A stretch of DNA of 49,193 nucleotides, filler included, from Jimgerdemannia flammicorona (lineage: Eukaryota): assembly GCA_003990765.1 (NCBI GenBank). It is 2 parts of 2 records of this genome, joined end to end, with 100 filler letters (N's around TTAATTAATTAA, not from the genome) between each part and the next. Parts side by side here need not be neighbours in the genome. Positions count along the whole stretch, not along the records: positions 1 to 24,548 come from RBNJ01000960.1; 1 more part is not named here. One strand, given 5' to 3'. The notes beneath the pieces are model-generated. The model made no database searches. It worked only from the letters and a program-made list of their open reading frames with translations, and was not told the DNA's origin. Shown here one piece after another: positions 136 to 42,316 of this stretch; the stretch's first letter is position 1; each line of letters starts with the position of its first letter. The translations under genes were made by a program, and so were the position numbers.

Positions 136-961
136 TGTAATAACTCTCACTTCTATCCCTCTCTTATCCTTTGGATAATTAGGGAAGTGGACTATTACTT
201 AGGGACTTAGTACACAATGTGTACCAAGAAGCCTTTAGTTTGAGGAAGCACTTGCTTAAAGTAGTTGTAGCAGCAGTGCCTTATCTTTCAAAGGTCTTTT
301 TCTGGTTTGCCTTCTGTTTCAAAGGTCTTTCTCTTGTGCTCTATTTCGAGAGTCTTGTTCTTTGCTGTACACAGACTGAATTTGCCTTGGAATTCAGGTT
401 CAATGGGTTTACTTAAGTCTTTGGGGGTTTATATACTGGTCTCAGTTCTGACAGAAGTTAGCTAGGCTTCTGAAGTTTAGTCAAAAACACTAGAGTCACT
501 TAGATATCATTACTAAGACTCAGGGGAATGTGTGTGTGGGGGGGGGACTTGATTCCTGTATCAAGGACTGAACTAAAACTGCTTTATTTCAGATGGAAAA
601 CTGGGGGGTATTTATACAAGTTGGTCCACAATTTCTGACTAAGTATGAGTGACTAATTTGGTAACTATAATGAGATTTGTGATCATGACCTTTGTCAGGT
701 GGTTTTTGGCAAAAACAACTTTGTGATCAGGACCTCAATTACTAGGCAATGATCAGCTGCTGTGGCAACTGTTGCTGCGGTGCTGATTGTTGGGGATAAG
801 CTGGATATCGTTTTCCACATCATTTCATATCATTCGCATCGTTTGTCATTCGTAATTCATATGTCGTGCTTTGTTCGTATGATGATGTCATTTCCAGGTC
901 ATGTGATCATTCATCATTTGTCATTCATCGTTCGTCATTTGTGCTTTCTTATTCTATTATA
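136..961 (-). repeat. 3' LTR of element A
   Basis: Starts TGTAATAAC; ends TATTATA (CA end mutated to TA); colinear with 8533-9358. Confidence 0.95.
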
Positions 962-974
962 TCCTTCCCCTCTT
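962..974 (-). other. Polypurine tract of element A
   Basis: AAGAGGGGAAGGA on the minus strand, abutting the 3' LTR. Confidence 0.9.
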
Positions 975-1803
975 AGAAATCAATGTTCTCATTGATTGAG
1001 AAATTGAGAACCAGGGGAGAGAAAGATGGGGAATCCTCCTTAGAGTCATTACCATCTTCTTCAAGAGCAGGGGGGGTGGTGGTTGCAGATGGCTCACTGT
1101 CCAGGATGGAGAAGTCAATGAGGTCTGCAAATGGTTCTTGCATTGAAATAGGTGCTGGTATAGGGATTCTCCATCTGATGCAGTTGGGGCCATCCAAGTA
1201 GGGCTCTTGATCTTCATGCCTGAGAATATCCATTCAGATAGATGGTCCTTCAAAGAGGTCAGAGAGATCTTGGAGCCATTGGTCAGGGTTGTCATTCAGA
1301 AGGGGGCTCCAGTAGGGTTCGCAGTCAGTAGACTTGAGGGTAATCCAGGAGTTGGCTTCTTGGGCAACCTTGACTTCTAGGGCATCGACCTCAGAGAAAG
1401 AGAGGTTCTGGAAGTCCTTCAGTTGTATGTAGTTGAGGTTGGGGATCATGAAGAGTGCATGGCACATGATTTGATGGACCTTCTTGGCAAGTCTTTGCTT
1501 GTGCCTGTCTAGGTGAGTCCAGTCAGAGACCTGGTCTGTGGGTAGGCCACTTGTATGTTGGAGGAGCTAGTGACCGATTTCATATTCATGCCAGATTTCT
1601 AGGCAGCTGGTAGCAAGGTAGGCCCTTTCAATAAGTTCACAGCAGTCAAGGACATACTGTCCTAGGTCTGGGCTGGAGAGGTTAAGGGCCTCTGAGTGGC
1701 GGTTCCTTCCTTGGATAGCAATCTAGATATGTCCAAAGAGGCGGTCAACCTGGCTTGGGAGGGGCTGGCTACAGCGGGCAGTTTGGCGGCAGGTGGCAGG
1801 CAT
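973..1803 (-). pseudogene. Accessory ORF of unknown function (276 codons, 3 in-frame stops) in env-like position of element A
   Basis: One frame from ATG 1803 (MPATCRQTAR...YVLDCCELIERAYLATSCLEIWHEYEIG...AKKVHQIMCHALFMIPNL...FADLIDF...SPLVLNF) joins track ORFs 1234-1467 and 973-1233; homologous to the LTR ORF of element B. Confidence 0.88.
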
Positions 1804-1868
1804 TCTTGTCTTGTCTTTTTCTTTGTGAGGAAAGAGGGATGAGAGTTGTGGGGTATTCTTGCCTTGGG

Positions 1869-1876
1869 TATTTATA
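1869..1876 (-). promoter_or_regulatory. Candidate TATA box for the accessory ORF
   Basis: GTATAAATACC about 65 nt upstream of ATG 1803; same motif as the LTR TATA at 609-616. Confidence 0.5.
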
Positions 1877-2449
1877 CTTATTCACCTGTCTGATGTGACC
1901 TTCCTTTGGTCATGCTTTCTGGCAAAAATGCATGACCTGTGCTATAAGTGGAGCATGTACTGGTCACATGAGAAAATTCTGATTTCAAAGATCTCGTCAC
2001 CCATCTGTGGTTACACAGGGTTAACAGGTCTTGGTCTACTTTTTTTTTGTCTGGTTGGTACATTTGTGAGGACTGGCCATCCTTGTCTAGGGCAAGGGCT
2101 CCCATTGTCATGGCTGGGGGTTCAAACCTCTCGGAAATAGACTTTTCTTATAATCCGAGGCAATTTCTAGTAACAATATCTGTCACATAGATGGACTTAG
2201 ACTGGTTTCAACATTGTCGGCTTTCCTAAGTTTCACATGAAGTGTCTGTCATCATCCAGCGGAGATGACACAGATGGCATGAAATAGAGTTGTTCAAATG
2301 TATTTTGCTATACTGTACTAGATTGTTCTTTTGCTCGGGTATCTTTTCGTTGGTTATCCATAGTGTTCCTTTTTCTCTGCAATGTTTGGTATTATATGTT
2401 TCCAGTTAAAAATATGTGGTATCCTTCTGCTCGCTGTATAGTCCTATAC

Positions 2450-2660
2450 TTAGAGCTGTAGTTCCTTCCTTTGCTGGGGGGTGAGTGTTTCCATGTAGTC
2501 CTGGAGGGCTTCACGTGCATTCTTTAGGGCTTCTTCTTTTTCCCAGATAGCATCATGGGTGGGGTAACTCTTCCACTTGATCAGGAAAAAGTGCTTGACT
2601 GTTTTGGGATATTTGCAGACCTTGTGGTCAAGTACTTCCTCAATTTTGAATTCCTCATGA
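2450..2660 (-). pseudogene. Chromodomain at the integrase C-terminus
   Basis: EEFKIEEVLDHK...FLIKWKSY...DAIWEKEEALKNA matches the chromodomain pattern. Confidence 0.9.
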
Positions 2661-5600: not shown

Positions 5601-6164
5601 TCTACAATGCTGAAGTCCAACTTCTCTTGATATTTGCCAATCTTGAGCAAAAGGTCCTCGCAGATCTTAGTCAATGGTGCAGTTTTTCCATCACCAAAGG
5701 TAATACATCTTTTCTCAGTAGTTGGTCTGCTTTGGGCTCTAATCCTCTTGACAGTCTTGGTGCTGATGTAGTTTCCAGTAGCACCACTATCAAGCAAGAC
5801 ATTGATATTTTGTCTGTGGACTTGGCCTGTGAACTTGATGCAACTATCCTCCTTCTTGATAGTATTGAGCTCTTTATCCTCATTGTTGTCCCAATTGCTG
5901 TCAGTCTCCTCAAAGTCAGTTTCTTCTCATCCTTCACAAGTAGGGTTGTCTTGTTTGGGTTCCTCAGTCTGTTGAGCTTGGCACTTCTCGGATTGAATTT
6001 TGAAAACTTTGGAGAGGTATGCATGGCATTTACCAACATATTCCATGCAGTACATTTGAATGGAATGAGGGTATCATCTACATGGTGCATAACCATCTGC
6101 AATTCTCTTGTATCAGTTTTCATCATCTTCCTTCATGGTAGTGACCTTTTGACTGGGAGGTTTG

Positions 6165-6580
6165 TTGGTAGATCCAAACCCTTTCTTGCTCTGATCTGTC
6201 TGAGAGAGTTCAGAGACTTCTTCAATGGTGAGATCTTGATGGATTTCTTCAATGATTGCTTGGGCAATTCTTTGACCTGTTTTGACTTCAAATGAGGTGT
6301 CTCCAAAATTTTGCAAGATGACACGGATTTCACCAGTAAATCCTTGGTCAACTACTCCTTCTCCTAGCCCAATGTTAAACTCTTTGGCTAGGCTGCTTTG
6401 CTCAGCAAGGCGGATGTATGTACCTCTGGGGGCTTGTATTGCAATTTCTGTTCACATGGTGGCATTGGTACTTGGTGGGATGGTGAGGTCTTGGCTGTTG
6501 TAGAGGTCATATTCAGCATCAGTTGGGTGGGCCTTAGTGGGGATGGTAGCCTTGTACCATATCTTCTGTACTTTGATAAC
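6165..6580 (-). pseudogene. dut: dUTPase domain between Gag knuckle and protease (element A)
   Basis: Motifs DAEYDL, QSSLA, GVVDQGFTGEI, GQRIAQ, KGFGST. Confidence 0.93.
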
Positions 6581-8532: not shown

Positions 8533-9358
8533 TGTAATAACTCTCACTTCTATCCCTCTCTTATCCTTTAGATAATTAGGAAAGTAGACTATTACTTAAG
8601 GACTTAGTACACAATGTGTACCAAGAAGCCTTCAGTTTGAGGAAGCGCTCGCTTAAAGTAGTTGTAGCAGCAGTGCCTTATCTTTCAAAGGTCTTTTTCT
8701 GGTTTGCCTTCTGTTTCAAAGGTCTTTCTCTTGTGCCCTATTTCGAGGGTCTTGTTCTTTGCTATACACAGACTGAATTCACCTTGGAATTTAGGTTCAA
8801 TGGGTTTACTTAAGTCTTTGGGGGTTTATATACTAGTCTCAGTTCTGGCAGAAGTTAGCTAGGCTTCTGGAGTTTAGTCAGAAACACTAGAGTCACTTAG
8901 ATGTCATTACTAAGACTCAAGGGAATGTATGTGTAGGGGGGGGACTTGATTCCTGTATCAAGGACTGAACTAAAACTGCTTTATTTCAGATGAAAAACTG
9001 GAGAGTATTTATACAAGTTGGTCCATGATTTCTGACTAAGTATGAGTGACTAATTTGGTAACTATAATGAGGTTTGTGATCGCGACCTTTGTCAGGTGGT
9101 TTTTGGCAAAAACAACTTTGTGATCAGGACCTCAATTATTAGGCAATAATCAGCTGCTGTGGCAACTGTTGCTGCAGTGCCGATTGTTGGGGATAAGCTG
9201 GATATCGTTTTCCATGTCATTTCGCATCATTCATATCATTCGTCATTCATAATTCATATGTTGTGCTTCATTCATATGATGATGTCATCGCTGGGTCATG
9301 TGATCATTCGTCATTCGTCATTCATCATTCGTCGTTCATGCTTTCTTATTCTATTACA
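8533..9358 (-). repeat. 5' LTR of element A
   Basis: TG...CA termini with TGTAATA/TATTACA inverted ends; TATAAATA at 9006-9013 on the minus strand. Confidence 0.96.
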
Positions 9359-9877
9359 AATATTTAATTAGTATAATATTTTTTATTAATAAAGTCTATA
9401 ATTTCTTCTATCTATTTTTTAAAAAATAGAAGCATAAATAAGATAATAGTTAGATTAATTATTTTTAATATTCTCTAATTTTTAACTATTTGAAAATAGA
9501 CTAAAAACTAAAGTTTTCTCTTTAGAGATATAATTACTCTTTATAATATTATCTAGTTATTTTTTTTCTCTCTCTAACTATAGAGAGATATCTGAAATAT
9601 AGTTCTTATATAATATAATATAATAAGTAACTTACTAAGTAATAATACTCCAAATGAGCCAATTTGAATATAATTTATCATATGATATTTAGATCTAAGT
9701 TAAATCTAGATTCAATTCATTATATAACTGAGCTAATCTAGATTTAATGTAGATTTGATCTGATTTATTCAATTTAGCTCATCTAATCTTACTCATCCAA
9801 TTCAGCTCATCTAATATAACTCATTTAATTTGACTTATTTAATAAATATTCTAGTAAAATATATATATTAAGTATAT

Positions 9878-11428
9878 TATAACAGTGACTCCAGAATGAT
9901 GACATCAATATAGGAGACAGTCTTTTCTTGCAAGCCACCAGATCAGAGCACAAGAAGATCATATGGTATATAAGATGAACAATAATGACTAACTGTGAGT
10001 CATTGTGACCACAGTATGGGTATCTTGAGGAATATAAAAGAAGAATCAAGAAACTACAATAGTAGTAACCAATAAGACCCACTAATCCCAAAATAGCTCA
10101 AAGACTTACCATAAATGAAATGTCTGCTACTTGTCAAACCTCAAGATCAAGGAATCACTAAGGCATCTTAGTTGAAGAAAGAATGTTCCAAGATATCAGA
10201 AGAGCCATAAAGACCTATACAAAGAGAACTCCTAGTGTCAACCTGAGTACTAGTAACTCTTATTATTATATTCTCTACTACTGTAAAGTGGAAACAAGGA
10301 TCACCATTACTACTGAATGTCTCCAAATATAGCAAGAGTATGAAATAAGAAACCTCCTCTGCCAGGAGTTCCCACAGACCAGCACTCAAGAGCTAAAAGA
10401 TACCACTCTCATAGATATATACGAAACAAGGACAGCTAAAAAGATCTATCAGATCTTCAGACATATACTATGGTTGATCCCCAACTTAGAGTATGTTAGA
10501 GTCTCAGACTTCAGAGACCTGTCAGCCCACTGTATCAATATACTAGAAGCCAGAGTAGCTATAGAAGTCCAGTCCACTATCATTCTTGACAGTGATGAAG
10601 TAGAAGACTTCTGGCATCCTATCCTCCAGGACAACCTAGACCAATTCCTGCAAGGATTGATCTCAGTATTCTAAGGCCCAAGTATCTAGGTTAGATCTCT
10701 CCAAAACTCTACATTTGTTCTCTATTTTATAGAAGAGAACCTTATAGACTGGAGAGCCCCAGATCTCCTTGTTCTTGCCACCACCAAATGTGATGACATT
10801 ATTAGTGATGACATTATCCTATACAACATATGTGATATATGCAATATATACAAAACACATGATCTATGTGATGATGATGAATTTGCAGACCTCATTTCCT
10901 TCAAAGACATCCTGACCTCTGATGAGAATGAAGCCTCTATGGTCTTGAACATTCTGCTTTAAAGTCCTTTGGTGATATTGAATTATGCTAGCATCAGCAT
11001 TCTGATGTGATACTGAATTATTTCAGCATTATTTTCCTATACCACTGAAATTATATCAGTATCCTGAATCTATACAACCATCAGTACTGACCCTGAAACT
11101 TAGCAGTTTTTCCTATTCTGGAATTTTATTTTAGTTATTGGAATTTATATTTAGCTTTATATCTTAGCAACCATTGAATTATATTTTGTATAAATACCCC
11201 TTTTATTTCCTCTAAAATAAAGTCAATCTACTTAGTGTAATATACACACTTTCTTGCAAGCAATTTAAGAGATAACAAGATAGTTTAAAGATAAGAAGTT
11301 TGAGAACTATAAGACCTTGAGAAGGCACTCCAATAAGAACTTGCTTATAACAAACTTGAGTTAGTCTAAGAGATATACCTTGAAGAGAATCTGGCATATT
11401 TGAAAGACTCAGCAACCACTACATAACA
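9878..11428 (+). repeat. 5' LTR of element B
   Basis: TATAACAGTG (decayed TG start)...CATAACA followed by the PBS; GTATAAATACCCC at 11188-11200. Confidence 0.92.
10120..11010 (+). pseudogene. Accessory ORF inside the 5' LTR of B, homologous to 973-1803
   Basis: One frame: MSATCQTSRS...AKKIYQIFRHILWLIPNLEYVRVSDFRDLS...WHPILQDNLDQFLQ...IDWRAP...FADLISF...SPLVILNY; several in-frame stops; TATAAAAG at 10033. Confidence 0.87.
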
Positions 11429-11431
11429 ACT

Positions 11432-11554: not shown

Positions 11555-14500
11555 ATGCATCCCCCTACATTCTATGGATATATTACTGAAGAGTCAATCC
11601 TGACCTTCATTGAAGACTTTAAACAATTCACTGCTATATAAGCTCTTCATGTAGATGCACAATTGGCCCTTCTACTAGTCAGCCTCAGAGGACCTACTAG
11701 AGACAAGTTCAATGTAGCCACTATTGCTGATAATGGTGCAGCTAAACTTGCCAATATAAAGGTCTTCCTCAGAACAATATACTATACTGAAGAGATCAAG
11801 CAAGCTCTCAAGAATCAACTCAATACTATCTGCCAGAGACTTAGTAAAGATCCCAACTCATTCTATATCCAAATCTGCCACCAGATTGTCTTGACTGGCT
11901 ATAATGATGCCCTCAAGGAACAAATAGTAGATTCAACCTTCCTCAAAGGAGTTCACCCTAAAATTGCCCTAGCAATTCAGTCTACCATAGCTATACTGAC
12001 CCTTGATCAGAAAGTAGTCTTTACACAAAGATATTGGACTGTCAGACACCCTGCCAAATACTCAATAGAGAAAATAACTGGTATCAAGATAGAGCTATCA
12101 AAGCCAACTAGTATTATATCTGCTACAGTTGTAAACAGACAACCAACCCCACCTACCCCCAAGATAGTCAAAGCTGACCCAGTGGAGGAACTCACTAAGC
12201 AGTTTCCCAAGATGACTGCACACCTTAGTAATGTTGTTAGAGAAGTCCAAAGTACCAACAGGAGACCAGTGCAGAGATTTATAACTGCTATAGAAGAATG
12301 CAACATCATATGCTTCAGATGTGGAAAAGAAGACCACTATGTAAAGAATTGCATGACCAAAACAAGATATAAAGCCCAACTAAGTAATATTAGCAGAACT
12401 AGAGAGCAAACTCATACAGTAGTTATCAAGAAGATTGGTGATACTGATGATGAAGAATACTATGAGGAGCTTGAATTTTACCTTACTACTGAAGGTACCA
12501 GAACCTAGTCCAAGTTCTATGATAAGAAGAGCAATAGAAAGCCAGTTGGAAGACCAAAGAAGACCCCAGCTATCACTATTCAAAGCAAGACTCAACTCAA
12601 GGAGAATGATCAAGACATAGAGTTAGATGGAGCTGCTTGCTAAATCATTGAAGGCACTACTCCAGTCTCAGGAGAAAGTGAAAGCAAGAAGAAATAGAAG
12701 CTGTATAAGACCAAGATCTATCAATATGATATCTATAAGGACCTCAAGAAACAGAAGGTCAATGCTACTTTTGGACAACTAGCCAAAGTCTCTACCTTTA
12801 GACAGTAGTTGAGAGTAGGACTTGCAATTACTACCAAGAATCAAGAGTATAAGATTGTAGAAGCTCACAATATACAGGAAGAATCAGAAGACTTAAGTGA
12901 AGAATCTGAAGACCAGTGCAAGATATCAGCCTATACTCTATGTCAGATCGAAGATTGTAACTTTGATACCATCATTGATACTAGTGCTGAAGGATATCTC
13001 ATGAGCAAGAAGGCAATTGACTGCCTAAGCTAGAACATTGAAGAGTCCACCAAGATAGTCTATATTATAGCAGATGATATACAAGCTACCCCCCTTGGCA
13101 AAATCCAAGAAGTCCCCATCAAGATAGAAGGAGCTACTATCTCAGTAGATGTGATTGTTACAAGTGCCACCAACTATAACATTCTCATTGACAACTAATG
13201 GCTTTACAAGGCCAAGGCCATCATTGATCTCAATGCCTAGAAAATGCAGATCAACTATAGAGAAAGAAAGATATAAGTCTCTATCAATGTCTATAAAGGA
13301 GTTCTACCAGATATGGAGGAAAGAGATGAAGAGGACACAGAAGTCTTTATGCACTCAGTGAATAAGAATAAGAACAAGAACAAGACACCCAAGCTTACAG
13401 ATGAGCAGTGGTATAACAAGATCATTGATAGCTATACTCCTCAAGAAAGATGCCCCCATGGTACTAGGATGTACTGTTCTGAATACCTAAATGACTGCTG
13501 GTCCTATATCAGTGAAGTCAGGAAAATCTGCCAATAGAAACATGAGCAAGAAGCCACTGAAGCAAAAAGGAAAGCAGAAGAAGATGACCAGCCCCCTGAG
13601 CTTCAAGCTGACAGTGATAATGAGGAGGAATAAGAATCAGATATCACTCTCAAGGTCAAGAAGTTTTACCCTAAAGCCAAGATCCCAGAATACAAGACTG
13701 AAAGAGCCATAGGAATGGACCTTGCCAGCATTCAAGATACTTCTCTTGAACTACAGACCACTACCCTACTTGGTATTGGAATTGGAGTCAAGCTACCAGA
13801 GAACTATGCTGGAATTATCAAGACTAGGAGCAGTCTGGCAAAAAGCAAAATCTCAGTTGAAAGAGGAGTAATTGACCCTAATTACACTGGTGAGATCTTC
13901 CTCATAGTCAGGAATCACAATCCCACCACTCCATTCAAAATCAAGAAGCATGATAGGATTGGTCAGATGCTGATCTATGAAATCAAGAAGCCTAAGATCA
14001 CTGAAGCCATCAAACTCATCAAGACCAAGAGAGGAGAACAAGGCTTTGGATCTACTGGAAGAGGAGCCTATGCTGTCACCAAGATCACTAAACTTGAGCA
14101 CAAGAAAGACAGGGACCAGAACAAGCACATATATACTATTGGAGAAAACTTTCCCCTGGAAGAACAACTTCTCAAGATTCTGTACCAGAATGAAGGAGTA
14201 CTTGCTACAGACTTTAGGGATATCCATAATTAAGAATTCAAGTACTACTATGAAGTTGATACTGGTGATACCAAGCCCATCTACCAGAAAGTCAGACCTA
14301 TACCACCTATCTATAGAGAATGGCTGTGAGCAAAACTCAAGAAAATGGAAGAAGCCAGAATTATCAAGCAAGCTATCAGTCTCTGGGCTTCACCCATTGT
14401 CCTTACTCCAAAAAAAGGAAGCAAGCCTGGAGAGTTTGCACCAAGACTCTGCATTGACTACAGGAAGCTCAATGCAATCATCAAGAAGGATAGGCAGCCC

Positions 14501-17126: not shown

Positions 17127-17136
17127 AGGAGGAAGA
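17127..17136 (+). other. Polypurine tract of element B
   Basis: AGGAGGAAGA directly before the 3' LTR. Confidence 0.85.
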
Positions 17137-18684
17137 TATAATAGTGACCCCAGAATGATGACATCAGCACAGGAGACAGCCTTTCTTACAAGCTACCAGA
17201 TCAGAGTATAAGAAGATTATATGGCATATGAGATGAGCAATAATAACCAACTGTAAGTCACTGTGACCACAGTATAAGTATCTTGAGAAATATAAAAGAA
17301 GAATCAATAAACTACAGCAACAGCAACCAACAAGACCCACCAATTCCAAAATAGCTCAAAGACTTACTACAAATAAAATGCCTGCTGCCCACCAAACCTC
17401 AAGGTCAAGAAACCACCAAGATATCTCAGTTGAAGAAAGGATGTTCCAAGACATCAGAAGAGCTATGAGGACCCACTCAAGAAGGACTCCTAATGTCAAC
17501 CTGGATACTGGTAACTCTTATCACTATATTCTCTACTGCTGTGAAATGGAAACAAGGATCACCATTGCTACTGAATGCCTCCAAATGTGGCAGAAGTACA
17601 AAATAGGAAACCTTCTCTGCCGGGAGTTCCCACAGGCTAGCACTCAAGAGCTATAAGATACCACTTCTATAGATATACATGAAACAAGAACAGCTAAGAA
17701 GATTCATCAGATCTTCAAGCATGCACTATGGTTGATCTCCAACTTGGAGTATGTTAGAGTCTCAGACTCCAGAGATCTATCAGCTCACTATATCAATATA
17801 CTAGAAGCCAGAGTGGCTACAGAAGCCCAGTCCACTATCACCCTTGACAGCAATGAAGTAGAAGACTTCTGACATCCCATCCTTCAGGATAACCCAGACC
17901 AATTCCTGCAAGAATTGATCTCAGTATTCTAAGGCCCAAGTATCTAGGCTAGACCTCCCCAAAACCCCACATTTGTTCCCTATTTTATAGAAGAGAACCA
18001 TATAGACTGGAGAGCTCCAGACCTCCTTATTCTTACCACTACTAAATGTGATGATGTCATTGGTGATGACATCATCCTGCATGATATATATAAGATGTGA
18101 CATATATGAAACACACAACCTATGTGATAATAATGAATTCATAGACCTCATCTTCTTTGAAGACATCCTGACCTCTGATGAGGATGAAGCCCCTATGGTC
18201 TTGAACATTCTGCTCTAAAGTCCTTTGGTAATACTGAATTATACTAGCACTGGTATTCTGATATAATACTGAATTATTCCAGCACTATTTTCCTATATTA
18301 CTAAAATTATACTAGCATCCTGAACCTGTACAACTATCAGTATCAACTCTGGAACTTAGCAGTTTTTTCTGTCCTGGCATTTTATTTTAGTTATTGGAAT
18401 TTATATTTAGCTTTATATCTTAGTAACCATTGAATTATATTTTGTATAAATACCCCTCTTATTTTCTCTGAAATAAAGTCAGTTTACTCAGTACAATATA
18501 TATACTTCTTTGTAAGCAATCTAAGAGATAATAAGATAGTTTAAAGATAAGAAGTTTGAGGACTATAAGACCTTGGGAAGGTACTCCAATAAGAACTTGC
18601 TTATAACAAACTTGAGTTAGTCTAAGAGATACACTTTGAAGAGAATCTAGTATATTTGAAGGACTCAGCAATCACTACATAATA
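17137..18684 (+). repeat. 3' LTR of element B
   Basis: Colinear with 9878-11428; both termini decayed to TA. Confidence 0.92.
17378..18266 (+). pseudogene. Accessory ORF inside the 3' LTR of B
   Basis: MPAAHQTSRS...YILYCCEMETRITIATECLQMWQKYKIGNLL...TAKKIHQIFKHALWLISNLEY; small indel near 18050. Confidence 0.87.
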
Positions 18685-19458
18685 ATATATACTCTCTTTT
18701 ATATTGTTTTTATATTTTATTATATTGATAGATTTTTTTAAACAAATAATAGTATAGATGATACTTCTAGCCAAACTGCTTTAAGTTGTTATATCTTATA
18801 CTCTAATATCTGACAGTATTGTAAGAAGAATAGTGATAATATTATTTATAACTACTATAGATAAAAAATGATTAAATATTATATACTATCTTTTTTTTAT
18901 AAGTTATTATTAATATATATATTTCTAATTGAAATATTTTTATATATATTTTAAATATCAGACAAATATATAAAGCTTCTAGTAAATTAACTTTAAATAT
19001 AATAAGACATATAAAAATCCAACATCTAGACAAAATTGAGCAGATTGAAGTAGTGTGCAAATTGGAAGTACTAATAATAATAAGTATACTTTTTTTATAA
19101 AAAAAAAAAAAACTTTAGGAGAAAATAAAGCTAATATATATTAAACCTGATAAACAATATATTCAGCTCTTTTCTTTGAAGAAATTTCAAGATCTACTCA
19201 TTTAGTGAATTGTAATCTCTGATCGGCTATTTACTACTATTAAAAGTGCTTCATTATATACTATCAAATATCTACTTTTATAAAAAAAAAAAAAAACTGA
19301 TTTCAGATTTTTTTTACCTTCTTTTCTCTAAAATAGAATATGGCAGACAAATTTTATTTACTATTAATATATAGACATCACCTAATATAATATTATTTCT
19401 TGGTATAACAGATCATTGAATTGATATAAATTAGAAACTTCAATCTCTCACTCTCAAT

Positions 19459-20598
19459 TAGTGCTCTCAAATAAATTGAATCAATTTAAATCAAATTGAA
19501 TTGAGAGTATTTCAAATTAAATTGGGGATTTTTCAATTTGAATTAGGTTTGAATCAAATTGAGTTCAAATCAAATTAGGGGTCTGATTTAAAATGTTCAA
19601 ACCAAATTGAGGTCTGATTCAATTTGAAATTGGAAATCAAACTTTGAAATATAATAACTTAATGAAAATATATCCAAATTTGATATATTTTAGCTTGTTA
19701 GATTCGCCTTAACAAAGTAAATCTGATACAATAAAGATCATTAGATTTGAATATATTTTCATCACATTATTATATTTTAAATATTTAGGTTCAAAATTGA
19801 GATCTGATTCAATTTGAAATTGAAAATCAAAATTTGGAATACAATAATTTGATAAAAACATTTCTGAATTTAATGTATTTTAGCTAGTTGGATTCGTCTT
19901 AATAAGGTGAATCCAGTATAATAAAGATCATTAAATTTGGACATTTTTTTGTCAAGTTATTGAATTTTAAAAGTTTAGATTTGTAAATTGAGATCTGATT
20001 CAAAGTCAAACTTTGAAATACAATAACTTGACAAAAACATATCCAAATTTAATGTATTTTAGCTTATTGGATTCACCTTGATAAGGCAAATCCAGTACAA
20101 TAAAGATCATCAAATTTAGATATGTTTTTGTCATGATATTGAATTTTAAAAATTTAGGTTCATGAATTGAGGTCTGATTTGAAGTCAAATTTTGAAATAC
20201 AATAATGTGATGAAATCATATCCAAATTTGATGTATTTTAGCTTATTTGATTTGCCATAATAAGATGAATCCAGTACAATAAAGATCATTAAATATAGAC
20301 ATATTTTTGTCATGTTATTTAATTTCAAAAATTTAAATTCATGAATTGAGGTCTGATTTGAAGTCAAACTTTGAAATGGAATAACTTGATAAAAACATAT
20401 CTAAATTTGATGTATTTTAGCTTATTGGATTTGCCTTAATAAGATAAATATAGTACAATAATGATCATTAAATTTGGATATGTTTTTGTCAAGTTATTGA
20501 ATTTCAAAAAATTTAGATTCAAATTGAAATTCAAATTAAATTAGGCCTCAATTTAATTTGAAGTTAATTTAATTCAATTCAATTTATTGAAAGTACTA
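19459..20598. mobile_element. Non-autonomous TIR-bounded element (MITE/foldback-like)
   Basis: TAGTGCTCTCAAATAAATTGAA at left is an imperfect inverse of TTCAATTTATTGAAAGTACTA at right; AATTG-rich subterminal repeats; no TSD seen. Confidence 0.6.
19605..20525. repeat. Tandem array of five 179-191 bp palindromic units
   Basis: AATTGAG(G/A)TCTGATT recurs at about 19605, 19795, 19986, 20165 and 20344. Confidence 0.93.
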
Positions 20599-24648: not shown

Positions 24649-24709
24649 TAGTCACTTGGACTCTGCCTTTGTTACCAGTCTATGAATAAATATACATCAT
24701 TCCCACCCA

Positions 24710-27700
24710 CTATCCAATCCCCACAGGGGGGCCCCTCTCTACTTCCTCACGAATGAAAATCACCCTTTCACCAACAACCCCAACTTTCCCCCCACTTTGC
24801 CCACAGATTTTCTCCACCAATTAGTGCCTCTGACCACCCCACATCCCCCAACCCAGCCACCAGCCTGTTAAGGTGTCTTCCATAAGCCTATGCCATCGCA
24901 GCAGCCAGTCTCCCAAGCTCTGTCTCCTCCCATCCTCAAAAACAAATAGCCAATGACTGGCTAACCCCACTCAAATAGCTAAAGCCCAACCCAAAGTGAG
25001 CCACTCCTTCCCTATCCCCCCTACCAATCTATCTCTCAAGTCCTCCCACTGCTCCTGTACTTCATCACCCCTACCCCATACCCCTAAGCGATCCCCAATT
25101 GTCTGCCAAAAATCCCCCAATACCTCATACTCTCCCAGCCAATGTTCCGGCATCTGTACATAACCCCCCTCCTGCCCTACATTATGGCACTCCTCACAGT
25201 CGAAGCAACCCCCTACAACAAGGTGCCCCAATCGAAAGTTGAGCATAACATTCCTCCACAGCATGTGCCACCAAACCACTCAGTACTTTGGTGGCAGCCA
25301 CACTCTCACTGCAGCACTTCAGGTCCAAACACCATGCTAGTTCCACTCTTCACCAATTCCAACCACAGATCCTGGTCTGGTCCCCTTTGGCATTCCATTC
25401 CATCACCAATGTCGAACTCAACTAAAGGAGTGCCACCCAGCAGTATACGATCCCATCTCCACATTGCCGGGTCCCAATCCTCCTCTCCTTCATTCCCCTG
25501 CCAATAAATACTATGCGGTGCACCCCTTCTGCAATCCCCCACCAAAATCCTTTATATTGCAGTTGGGCAGTGTTCTGAAGCCCAACCAAGGAGAGGAGAT
25601 CGCCAGTCAAGCCCCTTGGCGATGCCTGCCTCTCCCATATCCTCTGTAGCAGAGGAACCCATCCACCACCTCTCAACTCCACCACCCTCTTCAGCCACCA
25701 TGCTCTCAAGCAGTGTAACTGTTTTGGAAAGTCAACCAGCCCAAGACCACCTCTTGTCACTGGTAGGGACAAGGTCTCCCAACTAATCTGACTCCGTCTG
25801 CCAGCCCAAATCCATCCCTTTACTGACTTCATCAATCTCTTCACTACCCAGGCCGGGAAGTCCAGATGATATGCCAGGTACTACAATTTTGGCAGCCAGT
25901 AGACATTCAAAATCGAGACCCACCCTGCCAGAGAAAAATGTCTTCCCCCCCAATTCTGCAGAGCCTTATCCCAGATTCCAATCCTCTGCTCCCACCAAAG
26001 CCTGAGCAGAACTGACCCATAGACTGACAAGTAGATACCTAAGTACCACACTGCTTCCCCAGTGGGGACAATTGTTCTTATAACTTCCCCTCCCATCAGG
26101 CTGTTGCCTAGCACTATCATCTCACACTTATGCCAATTCAGCTTAGCTCCAGAGTACTCCTTATACCACTTCACAGTCTTATTGAGCTCCTCAACATCAG
26201 CAATTGAACCCAAACCCACCACCATGTCGTCAGCAAAGGCCCCAACTTTCCATCCTATATCAAAGACAGAGAGCCCTGCTATCCTCCACCTAATTCGGTC
26301 CATAAGAAGTTCCAGGGAAAGAGCATACAAAATGGGGGACAATGGATCCCCCTGGGGCACCCCCCTACCCAAGGAGAATGCTACCCCTCTATGTCCATTA
26401 CACATGAGTGCAGCCCTACTCCCTTCCAGTAGGCTGACCATCGCTGACTGGAATTGATGCAGAACCTCCATTCTATCCAAAACTTTCGCCAGCCAGACTC
26501 TTTGCACCCAGTCATATGCCTTCTCCTGATCCAAGAAGACTAGATGCCCATCCCATCCATAGGCCCTTGCCCCTTCGATAATGCCATATACCCAGGCAGT
26601 GCCATCTCTGATGAGCCGACCACCCACAAATCCCCTCTGCTCAACTCCCACGACTTGCTGGGCCACCTTCTGTAGTCTTCCCACCACCACCTTAGTCACC
26701 AACTTTCTGTCCATATCTAGTAACATTATCGGCTGCCAGTTCTTCCAATCATCCCGCCTTCCTTTGTTTTTATACAACAGTGTCACCAGCCCAAGGTCCT
26801 GCTCCCCCACCCACCTCCCTGTCTGTAGAATAAGGTCACACAGTGCTGTCATCTCTCCCATCACCCCTGGGACTCCAACCATTCACTTCCAAAAGTCCCA
26901 GGGCAGACCATCCTCCCCAGGTGCCATACCTGGCATTGTCATGGCAAGAACCTGGTGGATCTCTTTCTCCTGTACAGGCATCACCAGGTCCCCTAGCCCT
27001 TCAACTTGTGGCAGGTGCCAATCCTCCAATGTTTGTTCAATTGTAGTGGCATCTGCCCCACCCTCCTCCTTACTCCACAATCTACTCTATCTCTCCTTCA
27101 GCGATCTAAGAATGTCCTATACACTATGCACCAGTACACCATCAGAGTCCAATATCCCTTCCCACCATTGCTGTACCCACCTCGCCCTAAGGGCCCTTGT
27201 AAGAAGCTTGGAAGGCCTCTCTCCTTCCTCCAGATCCTGCCAGCGAAGACATGCTGCCAAGCTCTGTACCCTTGCCTCTTCCTCCTCCCGCAGCACCTGT
27301 TGAAGTTCCCCAACCTCCATTTTCGCCCTCATTATTCTCCAATCTCCTTCTCCCTCCAACATTGTCAGCCTTGCCCACTCCTCCAGGAGCCTCATCAATC
27401 TAGTGGAGGCCCAATGCACTCGTCATTTTCGCTGCTTCCCTGCCTCCTTGCCAGCCTCCCTCTAGTAAATCCTGGCCATTTCCTTCATCCTCATCCACCA
27501 AGTCCCAACTGAGGCCCCTTCCTGCCTCCAGTTCTCCACTCTCAATTAAATGTCCTTAGCCCACTCATCCCACTGGGTCTTGTCATCCAACAAAGAGGAA
27601 TTGAGGCACCAATGTCCAGGCCCATCCCCACTTCTCCCAAAGCACCCCTGTCCCAAAAGCCCCCAGTGATCTGACCATGGACACCATTCCACCTCTAGTG

Positions 27701-28346
27701 ACTTCCAAACATCTAGTCCCCAGCAGCAGGCCATCAAAATCCAGTCGATTCTAGTCCCCAGACCCCCTGCCCAATGTGTATAGACCCTCCTATTCCCCCA
27801 GTACTCCCTTCCAGTATCTAATAGTGTACTCAGTCTTTCCACTTCCTCCCATGTCACCAGTCCTCCACTCCTGCTCTCAGCACCTCGTCTGCCATCTGTT
27901 CTATCCAGCAGTATGTCCCTAACCATATTGAAATCTCCCCCAAGCATATCCACCCCCACCTCTGCAAGTAATCCACTCTCCTGTAAGCCTTTCACCCATT
28001 CTACTCTCTCACTCCATACTGTAGGGCAGTAGCAGGAGCCAACCATAACTGGCTCCCAGCCTGCCCAAATCCACTCTCCCCAGACCAGTCTTTCCCCCCA
28101 GCACTGCACATTCTGTATCTCCCCTCTGCCTTTCCTAACCAAAATCCCAACCTTGCCCTTCCAAATCACCACACCTCCCCATTCCTTCATCCATTCCAAC
28201 CTATCAGAGTCATCTTCACACCAGACATCCTGCAATAGGAAGAGATCAGCCTCCAATCTCTTCATCTAAGTAAAAATGTTCCTATGTTGAGAAGCACCCC
28301 ATAACCCATTCATGTTCAAAGAGAAAATGTTGGTTGTACTGTTCAT
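24710..28346 (-). pseudogene. LINE ORF2: APE endonuclease, RT, C-terminal Cys/His region
   Basis: SLNMNG, LLQD, GGDFN, RIDW, WSDH; PGEDG, LDQEKAYD, GVPQGDPLSP, AFADD, YLG; ends GPPVGIG; several stops and two frameshifts near the 3' end. Confidence 0.93.
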
Positions 28347-28383
28347 AATGATGATACATATATAGTATGTCATCAATCAATCT

Positions 28384-30401
28384 CTACTGCTCCATGCTCA
28401 TCTCCTCCTGTGCCTTGTTCAGATTATGTTCCACAGCCACCTCCTCCTCTTCTGCCCTCTGAGCCTCCAATCCAGCCAGCAGTTCATTCATCTCACCATC
28501 TGCCTTCTCCTCAAACTCCTCTTGGTATTCGATGCACACCTCCTGTCAGAGCTGTAGTCTGTGACACTTGTTCCAGCAGTATTCAGCCCTCTCTCCAGCA
28601 ATGACCACCATCTCCACCTCCCTCTCCTTATCTACCTCATACCCTTCCTCCTCCAGGTACACCACAAGAATTTCCACCTTCAATGCCTTCATTATGCCAT
28701 CCCCCTGCAGTATCCCTGCCCAATGTTCATCACTCACAAGTCCACTTCCCCCAACTCTTCCACCACCAGGTTATTTATCATCCGGCACATCCAAAGCAAG
28801 TTCCCCACCTCTTTCCCCCTTGGAGTCGCCAGCCTCCCTCCATCCAACATTGTGGTGTCAGCTCTAGCACTTGCAGACTCATCCCATACTTCTGGGACAT
28901 CCACCAGCTCCTCCTCACCAGCCACCACCACCTGTCCCCCAAATGCCACCTCCAGGACTCCGAATTGCACCATCTGGGCCCCCCACATTGGCACATCTTC
29001 TACCACCCTGTTCTGGGAAGCTGGGCCATGCCTGATGAGAGGGGTAGTGGTAGGGGAGCCCTCTCAGTCCTCCTCCCAAACCTCGAGTGTACCATCCACA
29101 TATGGGTCCTTCCTAGCCTTCTCCTTGTCCTCCCCTGCCTCCTTCCTGTTCTTCCCCTCCCCCTCACTGGCCCAGACACTTGCTTTGGCTCCCCCTGTGC
29201 CCTTCACCTCGCTCACCTCCCCCAGTGGTCTGCTTTCCAGCTTGGCCAGCAACTCCTTCTGTCTCTTATGCCCCTGAGCCCTTTTCCACTGCTCCTTGGT
29301 CACTCAAATCCACTTTCCATCCACTACCTCCAAGTGTTTTGACTCCACAAAGGCCTCCCATGCCTTCGCTCACCTCTCTACAGTACCACTCAGCTCTTCT
29401 AGTGCTTCCAATAAATCCTCCTCCTCCTTCTCACTTCTCTTCACTCTTGTCACCTTACACAGGATCGCTCCCCAGACCATCACCGAAGGCCAATCCCTTG
29501 CCTTCCCAGTGGCTTCTTTCCCAGCCAACCGAATTCTCACATCTACATCACCAGTCCTGAGCGAGGTCCCTTCCCTGACCCTGAACCCGATATCCACCAC
29601 CTCTCTATATTCTGCCATGAAATCCTCAACTCTCTTCCTTGTCTCCATTGCCATCACCATTGGCACCCCTTTTACCAGCAGTTGGACCACCCTGGGGTCC
29701 CACTTCAGGCACCATGCCATTGGAACACACACCTCCCCAACCACCAATCCCACCTTCAGTGCCTCCTCCAGTGGTGCCACCTCCTCAAAACCCACCTCCA
29801 CTCCTTTCAGACCCCTCAAAAACTTCACAGACACTGCTCCTGCCACCTGCTTAGCGATGAGCCCTAGCACCATCTTCGCCGTCACCACTAGGCCCCGGAA
29901 GCACAGTGTGACTGTGAATGCTGAAATCGATTTTTTGAGTAACAGGGCCACTGCCAGACCTGTCACACTATCCGCCAAGTCCCCTTGTCTTCTAAGCCTC
30001 AGCTGCTCAGCCTCACCATCAGCCGTTACATCTGGATTTTTTTCCAGATCAACAGTCCCACCACCATCAGCAGTCACACCCCCCTCAGCCACTACTCTCT
30101 CAGCTCCACTGCCCTCCCTTCCAAGAGCCACTCCCTCCTGCACTGTTACCTTCTTGGTCTCCTTGCCCTTCCTCAGCCAGCCCTCCAGCCCTGATGCCTG
30201 CTGTCTCCCCTTCACCATCTCCGCGAAGCTTGCCCTTCCAGATCCTGATCCTCTGCCACCTCCTCCACCCCTTCCCTGTCCACCTGTCAGCAGGCCCCTC
30301 ATACCCCCCCCCAGGCCTGGACCCCTCCCCACCTGCTGCCAGTCAAACGTGCTTGGGCCACCCTGCCCAGTATGCACCTCAGGTTGCCTGTCAGTTGTCA
30401 T
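28384..30401 (-). pseudogene. LINE ORF1 (~670 codons)
   Basis: Track ORFs 29370-30449, 29064-29303, 28734-29006 and 28546-28737 joined; Gly-rich N-terminus, SFAEMVK; conserved in copies c and d; start could be 30449. Confidence 0.85.
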
Positions 30402-30499
30402 GTTGTTAGTCTCTTTTCGCCAAAAAATAATGTTGAAAGTGCCTTCCAAAGGTTGTGGTTCAAGTAGTGACTAAGAGTGTTCATGGGTATTTCTCATGT

Positions 30500-33400: not shown

Positions 33401-34745
33401 GTATTCTCTCTATCCTCACTGGTCCAGACACTCTCCTTGGCTCCTCCCACAATTTCAATACCACTAGCATCCTTCCTTGCCTTTCTTTCCAGTTTTGCCA
33501 ACAGCCTTCTCTGCCTCTTACATCCTTGGAACCTTTCCCACTACCCCTTATCTACTTGAATCCTCTTTTCATCCACTACTTCTAAATGAATTAACTTGAT
33601 GTACACCTTCTAAGCCTTAGCACTCCTCTCCACAGCACCACTCAGCTCCTCTAGCACCTCAAACAGATCCTCTTCTTCCTCCTCACTCCCCTTAACCCTT
33701 ATTATCTTATATAAGAAAGCTCTCCAGACCATCACTGAGGATCAGTCTTTAGCCTTCCCAGTAGCTTCCTTCTCTACTAACTGAATTTGAATATCTACAT
33801 CCCTGGTGATGAAGGAGGTCTCCACTCAGACCTAGAATCCAACATCAACCACCTTACTATACTCAGTTATAACTTCCTCAACTCTCTTTCTTGTCTTCTC
33901 AGTGGTCACCATAGAGACCCTCTTTACCAGCAATTGCACCACCCTGGGTCCCATTTTAAGCAGCATGCCATCAGTATACACACCTGTCCAACTATCAACC
34001 CTGTCTTCAGTGTCTCCTCTAATGGTCTAGTCTCCCCAAAGCCAATCTTCACTCCTTCCAGTCCCTTCAGAAACTTCATTTATTCTACTTTAGTCATCTG
34101 CTTAGTAATAAGCCCCAGGACCATTTTCACTATTACTGCCAAGTCCCAGAAGTACAAGGTGATGGCAAACTCTGAAAGAGACTTCTTAAGTAATGGTGTC
34201 ACCTCTAGTCTCATTACACCATCTGTCAGATTACTAGGCCTTGTGCCTTTTCTATTGCTCAGGCTATCATCAGCAGTCCCATCTAGATTTTTTTTCTGAT
34301 CATCTATCACACTCCTATCAGCAGTCACCCCCTCAGCCCCTATATCACAAACCCCACTACTCTGGCCCCCCAGAGAGACTCTCTCTTGTGGCCACTGCCC
34401 TGCAGTCTTTGCTGTCTCCTTGCCCCTCCTAAGCCAGCCCTCCAGCCCAGCTCTCTGCTGACCCCCCTTTATCTTATCTGCAACGCTGGCCCTCTCTGTT
34501 CTCTAACCTCCAGCACTGCTCCCTTCTCTACCACATCCTCCCTCTAGCAGACCCCTCATGCTTTCTCTCTAGCTAGTACCTCTCTCTACATACTGCTAGT
34601 CAAATGCACCTAGTCTACTCTGCTCATTACACACCTTGGAATACTCATTGGTTGCAATAATACTAGTAGCTTTTCTTTAGAAATTATGTTGAAAGTGTTG
34701 CCAAAAGGTTGTGTAATCTAAATATTACCAGAGAAAGATGTGGAT
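30500..34745 (-). mobile_element. LINE copy c with internal deletion
   Basis: ORF2 3' part at 30500-32150 jumps from mid-RT to the endonuclease near 32150; ORF2 ATG at ~32617; ORF1 at ~32650-34660. Confidence 0.88.
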
Positions 34746-36299: not shown

Positions 36300-36850
36300 C
36301 CTACTAAAGAATTATCTATCTTCAGACTGTTCTTTAATCATTATCTCAATATATATAAGCATCCTCAGCATCAACTTCTGAACTTTCTTCCTCATTGACA
36401 TCTGGATCACTCTACTCTCTGGGTTCTTCTTCTTCCTCTGAGAACAGGATTTTGAAATAATTGATAATACTCAAATAGATGGCTAGATCTATCTCTTATA
36501 TATCATGCAGAGTGAACTGTACTTATTCTAATGCTATACTATTTTATTTGTAGATAGTATATTATCTGTCAGCAGTAGTAGTATGTCTTCATGTTAGATC
36601 TGTAGTATTCCTGATATAAGTCTGTTCTGGAGCTAGGAGGTTTTGCAACTATTTACCAATTATATAGTAGACCTATAGCTGGTAGACTTGAAGGAGACAT
36701 CTGGCTAAGGTGAGATTCTCTTGATAAATTTGAATTTACCAGAGAGAGTTTCCATTGGCTGGGCAGAATTGTGGTATGAAAATTAGAAGTAACTAAAATG
36801 AAATAAGAACAAGGGTCTGGAGATACTAGTCAATTCTCTGAATTATTATA
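36300..36850 (-). pseudogene. Decayed accessory ORF of element D, probable distant homolog of 973-1803
   Basis: One frame: QL*VYYIIGK*L...TDLT*RHTTTADR*YTIYK...FTLHDI*EI, then acidic tail SEEEEEP..DVNEEESSEVDAED. Confidence 0.6.

Positions 36851-42242: not shown

Positions 42243-42316
<74 letters not shown>
40076..42316 (+). mobile_element. 5'-truncated LINE copy f with poly(A) tail
   Basis: Begins in RT (DLGLVIILYRNKDRREDWKN), AFVDN, ends PPRDIG*, 3' UTR, then 71 A at 42246-42316. Confidence 0.88.

Follow-up and report, generated by a model that had tools for sequence, protein, structure and literature searches.

Two Gypsy elements, A and B, within the 49,193-nt stretch of Jimgerdemannia flammicorona DNA that was analysed (the window) carry three copies of a homologous accessory frame. 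The copies in the window are dead. Comparison with intact relatives elsewhere indicates that the gene itself is protein-coding and is kept by selection there, as the first-pass annotation had supposed. As an explanation we favor, at about even confidence, an ancestral accessory gene that lies at the 3′ end of the element, would be transcribed from its own promoter, and encodes a protein with a predicted helical core and an acidic tail.

Accessory frames in elements A and B

Element A is a bona fide LTR element on the minus strand, with TG(TA)...CA LTRs, target-site duplication (TSD), primer-binding site (PBS) and polypurine tract (PPT). The 5′ LTR (8533–9358, minus strand, TG...CA) is followed by a PBS opening with TGGTAGCAGCAG, the 826-nt 3′ LTR (136–961, minus strand) is 93.2% identical to it, and the 5-bp TSD ATATT is present at 131–135 and 9359–9363. 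The accessory frame lies inside these boundaries at 973–1803 on the minus strand, and consists of 276 codons plus a terminal stop in a decayed copy with three internal stops (codons 27, 79 and 190). The PPT (962–974, minus strand) is directly adjacent to the 3′ LTR, and the stop codon of the frame (973–975) overlaps it. The chromodomain (2489–2650, minus strand; Pfam Chromo, E = 1.6e-09) forms the C-terminal end of pol, at residues 1961–2014 of the frame window:960-8530(-), with the accessory frame downstream. The frame described earlier between chromodomain and PPT was thus recovered in full. The pol frame closes near 2420, and a spacer of about 617 nt separates it from the accessory ATG, which opens in a different reading frame.

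Element B lies on the plus strand, with a PBS, a PPT (AGGAGGAAGA, 17127–17136, plus strand) and two LTRs that are 86% identical, the 5′ LTR at 9878–11429 (1552 nt) and the 3′ LTR at 17137–18685 (both plus strand). Here the accessory frame is contained within the LTRs, and tblastn located copies homologous to that of A at 10120–10761 (E = 3e-40) and 17378–18019 (E = 3e-43). The first of these, B1, occupies 10120–10962 on the plus strand (280 codons plus TAA) and has four internal stops; the second, B2, occupies 17378–18218 on the plus strand, with internal stops and a change of frame around 18100–18124. B1 ends with ..MVLNILL followed by TAA at 10960–10962, and the intact relatives P0006 and P0013 end in the same way. 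Both A and B thus contain a frame that is separate from gag and pol and inside an LTR element, the generic definition of an additional ORF (aORF).

The paired segments of A and B quoted in the first-pass annotation are present in the window. The strings given for B are a composite of both B copies and not one sequence; the segment SPLVILNY is located past the natural stop of B, and the CC of the quoted motif is not kept in the intact relatives.

A search of the six-frame translation of the window with family profile HMMs matched A (982–1803, i-E 2.5e-116), B1 and B2 only; the best other match was at 36544–36681 (i-E 2.4 and 0.98). The weaker third copy reported in an element D was not found in the window, either by HMM or by tblastn with all three subtypes, and the gene said to be shared by three Gypsy lineages is seen there in two elements. 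At the right end, the window edge cuts through the RT of a third Gypsy element, whose 3′ end falls outside the window. The accessory copies are dead, and their stops are as dense as those in pol (1.09 per 100 codons in the A frame, compared with 1.04 in A pol), in a genome hypermutating C to T.

Homology, selection and intact relatives

BLASTP of A against B1 gave 84/215 identities (39%, E = 9e-47). The Smith–Waterman score of A against B was 360, far above the scores of 300 shuffled controls (33.1 ± 4.8, maximum 52; z = 68.8). The end-to-end alignment claimed for the two proteins was supported over these 215 residues, but was marginal for the tail alone, where 42 of 1000 shuffles reached the observed score. 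Self-BLASTN of the window revealed no A–B match within the accessory frame.

This similarity had been attributed to probable exchange between lineages, and an accessory gene that moves by recombination between unrelated Gypsy elements, as a module independent of pol, is one alternative to common descent. The accessory identity is slightly above that of all pol domains (RT 35%, RNase H 34%, dUTPase 32%, integrase 27.5%), and RT usually evolves more slowly than accessory genes do. The domain order also differs, as had been noted (dUTPase-PR-RT in A, PR-like-dUTPase-RT in B), and the different places of the dUTPase amount to a modular rearrangement. In the available parts of PMC5408684, extra ORFs are shared between types of retroelement in bdelloid rotifers. 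However, the difference between 39% and 35% is small, comes from decayed copies of two elements, and fits co-divergence. A and B also have in common the dUTPase, the LTR termini (T[G/A]TAA[T/C]AG...) and an LTR core of about 40 nt with TATA box and poly(A) signal (TTGTATAAATACC...TCTGAAATAAAG). The LTRs, described earlier as different, thus differ in length (826 and 1552 nt) and agree in termini and core. Since the accessory frame is about as conserved as RT and RNase H, and the termini and core promoter are common to both, no exchange is needed, and we consider it rather unlikely. Judged from these sequences, A and B are diverged relatives and not unrelated lineages.

Outside the window, the family comprised 14 member sequences in 7 clusters, all of them metagenome records in the collections searched. 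A search of 1.84 billion representatives returned five matches, all family members, and 5.8 billion clusters, searched with a profile, likewise yielded five. At least seven open frames of 247–342 codons occur in independent metagenome contigs. The intact proteins include P0005 (342 aa), P0006 and P0013 (247 aa), and P0010, P0014 and P0018 (324–331 aa), and all full-length intact relatives begin with MP. Three subtypes, 29–46% identical, have this start and the overall architecture in common. Protein conservation between families and the existence of open copies, which also characterize aORFs, were both found (E = 9e-47 between A and B1; intact proteins of 247–342 aa).

The genomic layout of the intact relatives was read from one contig, L001, in which an open frame of 291 codons stops at a PPT|TGTAATA.. 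junction identical to that of A. The ending ..IDF stop is kept in A and L001, and could stem from the overlap of these codons with the T-rich stretch and the PPT. At the nucleotide level, A and L001 resemble each other only within the frame, save for one 45-nt block upstream of it (A 2056–2099, L001 10–54), which gave no significant coding signal (E = 0.068). A 946-nt contig from sequencing run X7 spans 952–1819 with 86 substitutions and no gaps. Contig L002 (9.5 kb, weak match) was a bacterial false positive encoding NeuB, SecA and others. No relative was found among IMG/VR viral contigs, and no fused or longer form among proteins of 511–2000 aa, the latter being weak evidence. The ESM Atlas gave sub-threshold leads only, including one Mucoromycota cluster at 0.89, and nothing for subtype C.

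For A and L001, pN/pS was 0.393, compared with a mean of 0.862 and a minimum of 0.615 in a neutral simulation (0 of 300 runs as low). The Nei–Gojobori omega was 0.21, with pS at 0.647 and dS near saturation. Differences by codon position numbered 83, 63 and 130. The B1 and B2 copies, expected to be neutral, also showed a low pN/pS (0.38; simulated mean 0.60, 5th percentile 0.454), indicating that mutation bias depresses the ratio and that the simulation misses sequence context. The B LTR pair differs by 207 transitions and 6 transversions, and CpG observed/expected ratios of 0.02–0.22 point to heavy cytosine-directed mutation of repeats in the host genome.

Promoter motifs, LTR core and polypurine tract

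Each frame is preceded by a TATA box. In A, the motif GTATAAATACC (1867–1877, minus strand) lies 73 nt upstream of the ATG, and is an 11-mer identical to that of the LTR core promoter, with no resemblance between the internal promoter and the LTR core beyond 12 nt. With at most one mismatch, this 11-mer occurs six times in the window (shuffle mean 0.87; 0 of 100 shuffles reached six). A one-mismatch occurrence at 41737–41747 was set aside because of its unrelated context. In B, TATAAAA is present at 10033–10039 and 17291–17297 (plus strand), in each case 87 nt upstream of the B1 or B2 ATG, and the corresponding distance in L001 is 80 nt.

The LTR core of A (582–617, minus strand) contains TATAAAT at 616–610 and AATAAAG at 588–582, and would provide the genomic promoter and poly(A) signal. 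The succession of TATAAAT and, after 27–28 nt, AATAAAG is kept between the A and B LTRs, and recurs in B at 11188–11222 (5′ LTR) and 18444–18478 (3′ LTR), both on the plus strand. Because the core sits downstream of the accessory frame, the B frame is placed in U3. The gene precedes the PPT in A and L001; in B, the PPT precedes the cassette.

We propose that the accessory gene dates back to the common ancestor of the A and B families. The cassette consists of its own TATA box, 73–87 nt before the ATG, and a sense frame of 250–340 codons; a subgenomic transcript would end at the LTR core, with its poly(A) signal. Along the RNA, A and B share one order (pol, cassette, U3 core, R), and differ solely in the place of the PPT. 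With the PPT after the gene, as in A and L001, the gene stays internal; with the PPT before the cassette, as in B, reverse transcription copies the gene into the U3 of both LTRs. Each B LTR, and in principle a solo LTR too, would then be a unit of promoter, gene and terminator. What the data show is the homology, the selection, the anatomy of the cassette and the PPT shift; use of the internal promoter, the subgenomic mRNA and a regulatory role are inferred.

No sequencing run recorded as RNA contained the stretch. Coverage by run X7 was set aside as expression evidence, as it consists of contigs whose RNA origin is only guessed; the frame and LTR are covered, many pol bins are not. Of 12 runs listed, four were used (X1, X2, X7 and X12), all of them contigs, and no joint across the pol–accessory spacer was listed in them. 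Run X1, labelled soil metagenome, covers all 30 bins, but may itself be the source of the window. Searches for tRNA and Rfam families gave no matches.

The accessory protein and its possible role

The protein would be soluble, with a short basic N-terminus, a mostly helical core of about 190 residues and an acidic tail. Five proteins have polar or basic N-termini and Kyte–Doolittle means over 19 residues that peak at 0.59–1.07, without any transmembrane-like segment. The signal peptide and transmembrane anchor that define an Env are thus lacking, and no Pfam env model matched, in agreement with the earlier view that the protein is not env. The helical core and acidic tail described earlier were also recovered: AlphaFold predicted helices through residues 21–187 and a disordered tail, and the tail (54–122 residues, pI 4.05) contains 18–27 D/E and 2–6 K/R, with F, W, L and I interspersed. 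The core has a pI of 5.6–6.4 and is not basic, so a classical DNA-binding domain is not favored; no basic nucleic-acid-binding region was seen beyond the first 45 or so residues. An acidic-hydrophobic tail is not by itself diagnostic of an activator. Patterns for 9aaTAD and Atg8 interaction match some tails, inconsistently across subtypes, and were not used.

The family, which the first-pass annotation did not recognize, had no significant match in Pfam (best E 0.13–0.19, none at E ≤ 0.1), and a profile search of PDB sequences gave 0 matches at E ≤ 10. Confidence in the two AlphaFold models was low (mean pLDDT 55.5 and 42.1), and with them Foldseek against the PDB gave 0 matches at E ≤ 0.001 and a wide fold search with VIA reached Z 4.7 at best, with no chain at Z ≥ 5. 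These checks, proposed with the original claim, returned no confident match to a described retrotransposon domain. Given models of this quality, the fold searches are no evidence for a new fold. No Pfam gag model matched, and a capsid-like fold is still conceivable with such models. No description of the protein was found in the literature, a weak negative since text is not searchable by sequence.

The role is probably regulatory, and we tentatively suggest a regulator acting in trans. The core would recognize a target specific to the element, which could be LTR DNA or a protein of the element or host, and the acidic-hydrophobic tail would recruit host machinery that raises element transcription or counters silencing. 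The fuller proposal of an LTR-borne activator or counter-silencing factor with its own promoter, carried into U3 by the PPT shift in one family, is more doubtful; each B-family LTR, solo LTRs among them, would then be expressed autonomously and could supply the factor to all copies. A counter-silencing factor would have value in a host genome that hypermutates repeats at cytosines.

The protein might instead be a cofactor of replication or structure, helping RNA export or packaging, or using its acidic tail as an adaptor to histones or integrase that guides integration. The predicted helical core of near-neutral charge and the acidic tail are compatible with such a role, and A carries a chromodomain, which suggests that chromatin contacts matter to this element. 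A precedent is CERV of the C. elegans element Cer1, an extra LTR-retrotransposon protein needed for export of genomic RNA in the available parts of PMC10309623. Against this, there was no significant Pfam match to gag, capsid or RNA-binding models, the basic region is short, and nothing positive was found for any partner; a cofactor role is possible, if unlikely. A captured fragment of a host gene, carried along and of no use to the element, is improbable. LTR retrotransposons do transduce host sequence, but the two large collections gave only five matches each, those among the representatives being all family members. Moreover, the three subtypes keep their architecture and MP start, pN/pS is below the neutral expectation, and the position and TATA box are conserved. 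It is highly improbable that there is no protein and that what has been conserved is a cis-acting region of the nucleic acid near the PPT and U3. The last codons do overlap a T-rich stretch and the PPT, but this account is opposed by the open frames in independent contigs, by the excess of third-position differences (130 compared with 83 and 63), and by protein similarity of 39% that persists where nucleotide similarity is lost.

The ancestral accessory gene that we favor resembles the aORFs of Ty3/Gypsy elements (plant Tat, Ogre and Retand; fungal; rotifer) in being an extra sense frame, conserved within the family, between pol and the 3′ LTR. The protein was compared with these by description only, and without a significant Pfam match. 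To our knowledge, extra genes of LTR retrotransposons are attested and almost all lack a known function. Fungal elements are drawn with an 'add. ORF with unknown function' in the available parts of PMC2864245, and the ORF3s of bdelloid rotifer elements in those of PMC5408684 are env-like proteins or GDSL or DEDDy enzymes; unlike the latter, the accessory protein has no enzyme signature. Elements in both sources carry dUTPase at variable positions, and the placement of the gene inside the LTR, as in B, is not described in the parts available.

The B frame is reminiscent of sag of MMTV in that it lies wholly within U3, ahead of the LTR core promoter, and is duplicated in both LTRs. MMTV sag is a gene inside the U3 of a retroviral LTR, and its product is a membrane glycoprotein. 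In A and L001, by contrast, the gene lies outside the LTR, before the PPT; the accessory protein has no hydrophobic segment that would give the type II membrane topology of Sag, and no significant Pfam match, and the host is, as far as the evidence goes, not a vertebrate. The tas/bet region of foamy viruses holds 3′ accessory genes with an internal promoter, and the accessory gene described here likewise lies 3′ of pol and has a candidate internal promoter. Its acidic C-terminal region is of the activator kind in composition only, the core is not basic, and there is no sequence homology to Tas (no significant Pfam match; 0 matches in the PDB profile search). VANC proteins are anti-silencing proteins of plant VANDAL DNA transposons. 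The parallel with these non-enzymatic, transposon-encoded accessory proteins is purely functional, and they belong to another transposon class.

The protein family is new in that it has no Pfam model, solved relative or name in the collections searched. The same cassette, internal in one family and in U3 in its sister family, offers a natural comparison, and the PPT shift explains the difference. If the protein is not a regulator, it represents a well-delimited, selected orphan gene. If it is, retrotransposons would have a counterpart to the accessory regulators of retroviruses, the B family would illustrate how LTRs can acquire genes, and solo LTRs would gain importance because a trans-acting factor could come from them.

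Copies and homologs of the accessory frame

Element A is a complete but dead Gypsy insertion, with LTRs at 136-961 and 8533-9358 (minus strand, 93.2% identity) whose termini read TG(TA)...CA; the 5-bp target duplication, ATATT, is perfect. Its pol frame contains Pfam domains for dUTPase, protease, RT, RNase H, integrase, a Tf2-type SH3 domain and a chromodomain (about 2489-2650, minus strand). As described in the first-pass annotation, translation, Pfam and LTR mapping place an accessory frame of 276 codons plus a terminal stop (973-1803, minus strand) between the chromodomain and the polypurine tract (PPT), with internal stops at codons 27, 79 and 190. The frame lies about 617 nt from the end of pol, in a different reading frame, and its stop codon overlaps the PPT (962-974, minus strand), which abuts the 3' LTR. 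Stop density is equal in the accessory frame and pol (1.09 vs 1.04 per 100 codons), indicating that the whole element decayed together. A run labelled soil metagenome (X1) has cover in all 30 bins of the element, but this run may itself be where the window comes from.

Element B, a second decayed Gypsy-type retrotransposon, has LTRs of 1552 nt (9878-11429 and 17137-18685, plus strand, 86% identity), each containing a homologous frame on the plus strand: B1 in the 5' LTR (10120-10962) and B2 in the 3' LTR (17378-18218), the latter with a frame change near 18100. The proteins of A and B1 share 84/215 identities (39%, BLASTP E 9e-47), and the alignment held against shuffled controls (Smith–Waterman score 360 vs 33.1 ± 4.8 in 300 shuffles), establishing the homology of the copies. 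The acidic tails alone aligned marginally, with the observed score equalled in 42/1000 shuffles. The proposed pairing of SPLVLNF in A with SPLVILNY in B was not retained: the B frame ends in '..MVLNILL' and a stop, exactly as in the intact relatives P0006 and P0013, and SPLVILNY sits beyond this natural stop. Located at 10963-10990 and 18219-18246, right after the stop, it approximately repeats the C-terminal P-x-V-L-N-F motif of the family, and may be left over from a small duplication or be fortuitous. A third copy had been assigned to another element, D; two profile searches of the window recovered the A and B copies alone (next-best matches i-E 2.4 and 0.98).

Intact relatives were found in metagenomes. 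HMMER over 1.84 billion representative proteins gave five matches at E <= 0.001, and 5.8 billion clusters, searched by word index, yielded one match with a single protein and five with a profile. The family comprises 14 member sequences in seven clusters, all from ENA or JGI/IMG metagenome records, where they are named 'hypothetical protein' at most. An A-like subtype includes P0009 (the 291-codon open frame of contig L001) and P0005 (342 aa); a B-like subtype (P0006, P0013; 247 aa) and a third subtype (P0010, P0014, P0018; 324-331 aa) show 43% and 29-30% identity to P0009, respectively. An MP start is common to every full-length member. No fused or longer forms were present among proteins of 511-2000 aa, which is weak evidence.

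The 3' end of L001 matches that of A, the last codons running into a T-rich stretch, followed by the stop, the PPT and the LTR start TGTAATAAG. Between pol and the accessory gene, A and L001 cannot be aligned, apart from a 45-nt block (A 2056-2099, minus strand; L001 10-54; 80% identical). The coding signal of this block is non-significant (E 0.068), and it could be a cis element.

A TATA-gene cassette and its position relative to the PPT

In all three lineages the accessory frame is preceded by a TATA box. Its distance to the ATG is 73 nt in A (GTATAAATACC, 1867-1877, minus strand), 80 nt in L001 and 87 nt in both B copies. TATA-like heptamers are rare across these regions (just 3-5 per 1.5-2.3 kb), so placement within the same ~40-nt window in three independent lineages is, by our own informal estimate, unlikely to be due to chance. 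The 11-mer in A repeats the LTR core promoter motif exactly. At <=1 mismatch it occurs six times in the window (shuffle mean 0.87; 0/100 shuffles reach 6), and five of the six matches are the four LTR cores and the site upstream of the A frame. Beyond this motif, the likeness of the internal promoter of A to the LTR core does not continue.

A block TTGTATAAATACC...TCTGAAATAAAG is conserved in the LTRs of both elements, lying 344 nt into the LTR of A and at LTR position 1312 in B. This block probably supplies both the genomic promoter and the poly(A) signal. In B it is downstream of the accessory frame, which puts the frame in U3. Along the RNA, A and B share one order (pol, TATA-gene cassette, U3 core, R). 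Structurally they differ in nothing but the position of the PPT: in A and L001 it comes after the gene, in B (17127-17136, plus strand) before the cassette. Since the PPT sets the LTR boundary, its shift alone puts the gene into both LTRs of B.

Selection, mutation bias and ancestry

Comparison of the A and L001 frames gave pS = 0.647, pN = 0.254 and a Nei–Gojobori omega of 0.21, which is limited by a dS close to saturation. Differences at codon positions 1/2/3 numbered 83/63/130. In neutral simulations with transition and transversion numbers matched to those observed, none of 300 runs gave a pN/pS as low as the observed 0.393 (mean 0.862, minimum 0.615). The expectation of a dN/dS well below 1 was thus borne out for this pair, but the LTR copies of B, for which neutral drift is expected, also gave a lowish pN/pS (0.38 vs a simulated mean of 0.60 and 5th percentile of 0.454), in part because of the mutation process. 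Between the B LTRs there are 207 transitions against 6 transversions, and identity is 85.2% in the frame and 86.3% and 88.2% in the flanks, which we take as equal divergence. Given the near-saturated dS and the low ratio in the B LTRs, dN/dS is supportive and not conclusive alone; greater weight lies with the open frames found in independent contigs, and with them selection on the frame is established.

The base following changed C's between the B LTRs was A in 117 cases, C in 49, T in 39 and G in 2, and the CpG observed/expected ratio was 0.02 in B, 0.18 in A and 0.02-0.22 over all segments tested. The C-to-T process in the window is RIP-like or methylation-driven, and LTR divergence is therefore no clock here. 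CpG depletion extends to the satellite and AT-rich spacer.

The first-pass annotation had A and B differing in LTR, PBS, domain order and chromodomain, and proposed exchange between lineages. The elements do differ in LTR length, in the PBS after TGGT, in where dUTPase sits with respect to protease, and in the chromodomain (none in B at Pfam E <= 0.001 or tblastn E <= 1e-3), but share a dUTPase, LTR starts (T[G/A]TAA[T/C]AG), the LTR core and the PBS opening TGGT. Between these decayed copies, protein identity is 39% for the accessory protein, 35.4% for RT, 33.6% for RNase H, 32.1% for dUTPase and 27.5% for integrase; conservation of the accessory gene on a par with RT is notable. With the LTR starts and core also shared, exchange is not required, and inheritance of the cassette from a common ancestor of A and B is the simpler reading.

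The dUTPase lies before the protease in A (6160-6550) and after a protease-like region in B (13649-14128). In a third dUTPase-bearing Gypsy element, cut at RT by the right edge of the window, it lies at 47959-48345, between protease-like matches at 46279-46536 and about 48780-48945. Variable dUTPase positions are described for Gypsy elements of fungi (Postia, Phanerochaete, Tuber; PMC2864245) and of bdelloid rotifers (PMC5408684). From the chromodomain, the CpA bias of the C-to-T changes and the CpG depletion, we would guess that the host is a fungus.

Elsewhere, the window contains a tandem array (19604-20527; 179-nt unit, 5 copies, 81% matches, 23% GC) and diverged non-LTR (LINE-like) copies (24700-34700 and 40092-42316; 64-72% alike), in which C strongly outnumbers G on the plus strand. 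On the minus strand these copies carry RT (25884-26882) and an endonuclease/exonuclease/phosphatase domain (27549-28265). An unbroken A run of 71 nt occupies 42246-42316, and upstream of the right-end Gypsy element are short tandem repeats of 19/38 nt (42944-43016) and 49 nt (43520-43650). The 88 N's (first 24549, last 24648), read as an assembly gap, fall in the filler joining the two records.

The accessory protein and its possible role

The protein family had not been recognised at first pass; likewise, Pfam gave no significant match (best E 0.13-0.19) and a profile search of PDB sequences gave none. AlphaFold predicts, at low confidence (mean pLDDT 55.5 for P0009, 42.1 for the B type), a mostly helical core with a disordered tail, in agreement with the earlier description of a helical core and acidic tail. 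The predicted helices of P0009 span residues 21-34, 50-86, 92-98, 103-116, 120-125, 131-135, 139-152 and 176-187, followed by two short strands. Fold searches returned generic helical bundles only (Foldseek, 0 matches at E <= 0.001; best VIA Z 4.7), and are uninformative on fold novelty. The core has a pI of 5.6-6.4; the tail (54-122 residues, pI 4.05) contains 18-27 D/E and 2-6 K/R with interspersed F/W/L/I. The absence of any hydrophobic segment or signal-like N-terminus in the protein indicates that it is not env, as previously argued.

We infer that the cassette's own promoter would give an mRNA of ~1.1-1.3 kb ending at the LTR poly(A) signal, and each LTR of B-type elements would then be a complete expression unit. 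The protein would act in trans, with its acidic-hydrophobic tail recruiting host factors. We favour, tentatively and at well below even odds, a regulator that acts on transcription or against silencing. That repeats in the host undergo strong cytosine-directed mutation makes a counter-silencing role attractive, as context only, and a replication or chromatin adaptor is a comparably doubtful candidate, about as likely as the regulator.

Extra ORFs in LTR retrotransposons are of an already known kind. The present family appears to be undescribed: it lacks a Pfam model, is unnamed in every source, and is not described in the literature text searched. PMC2864245 may depict a similar 'add. ORF'. 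The paired placement of the gene, internal and in U3, is accounted for by a PPT shift and makes an unusual variant that lends itself to testing.
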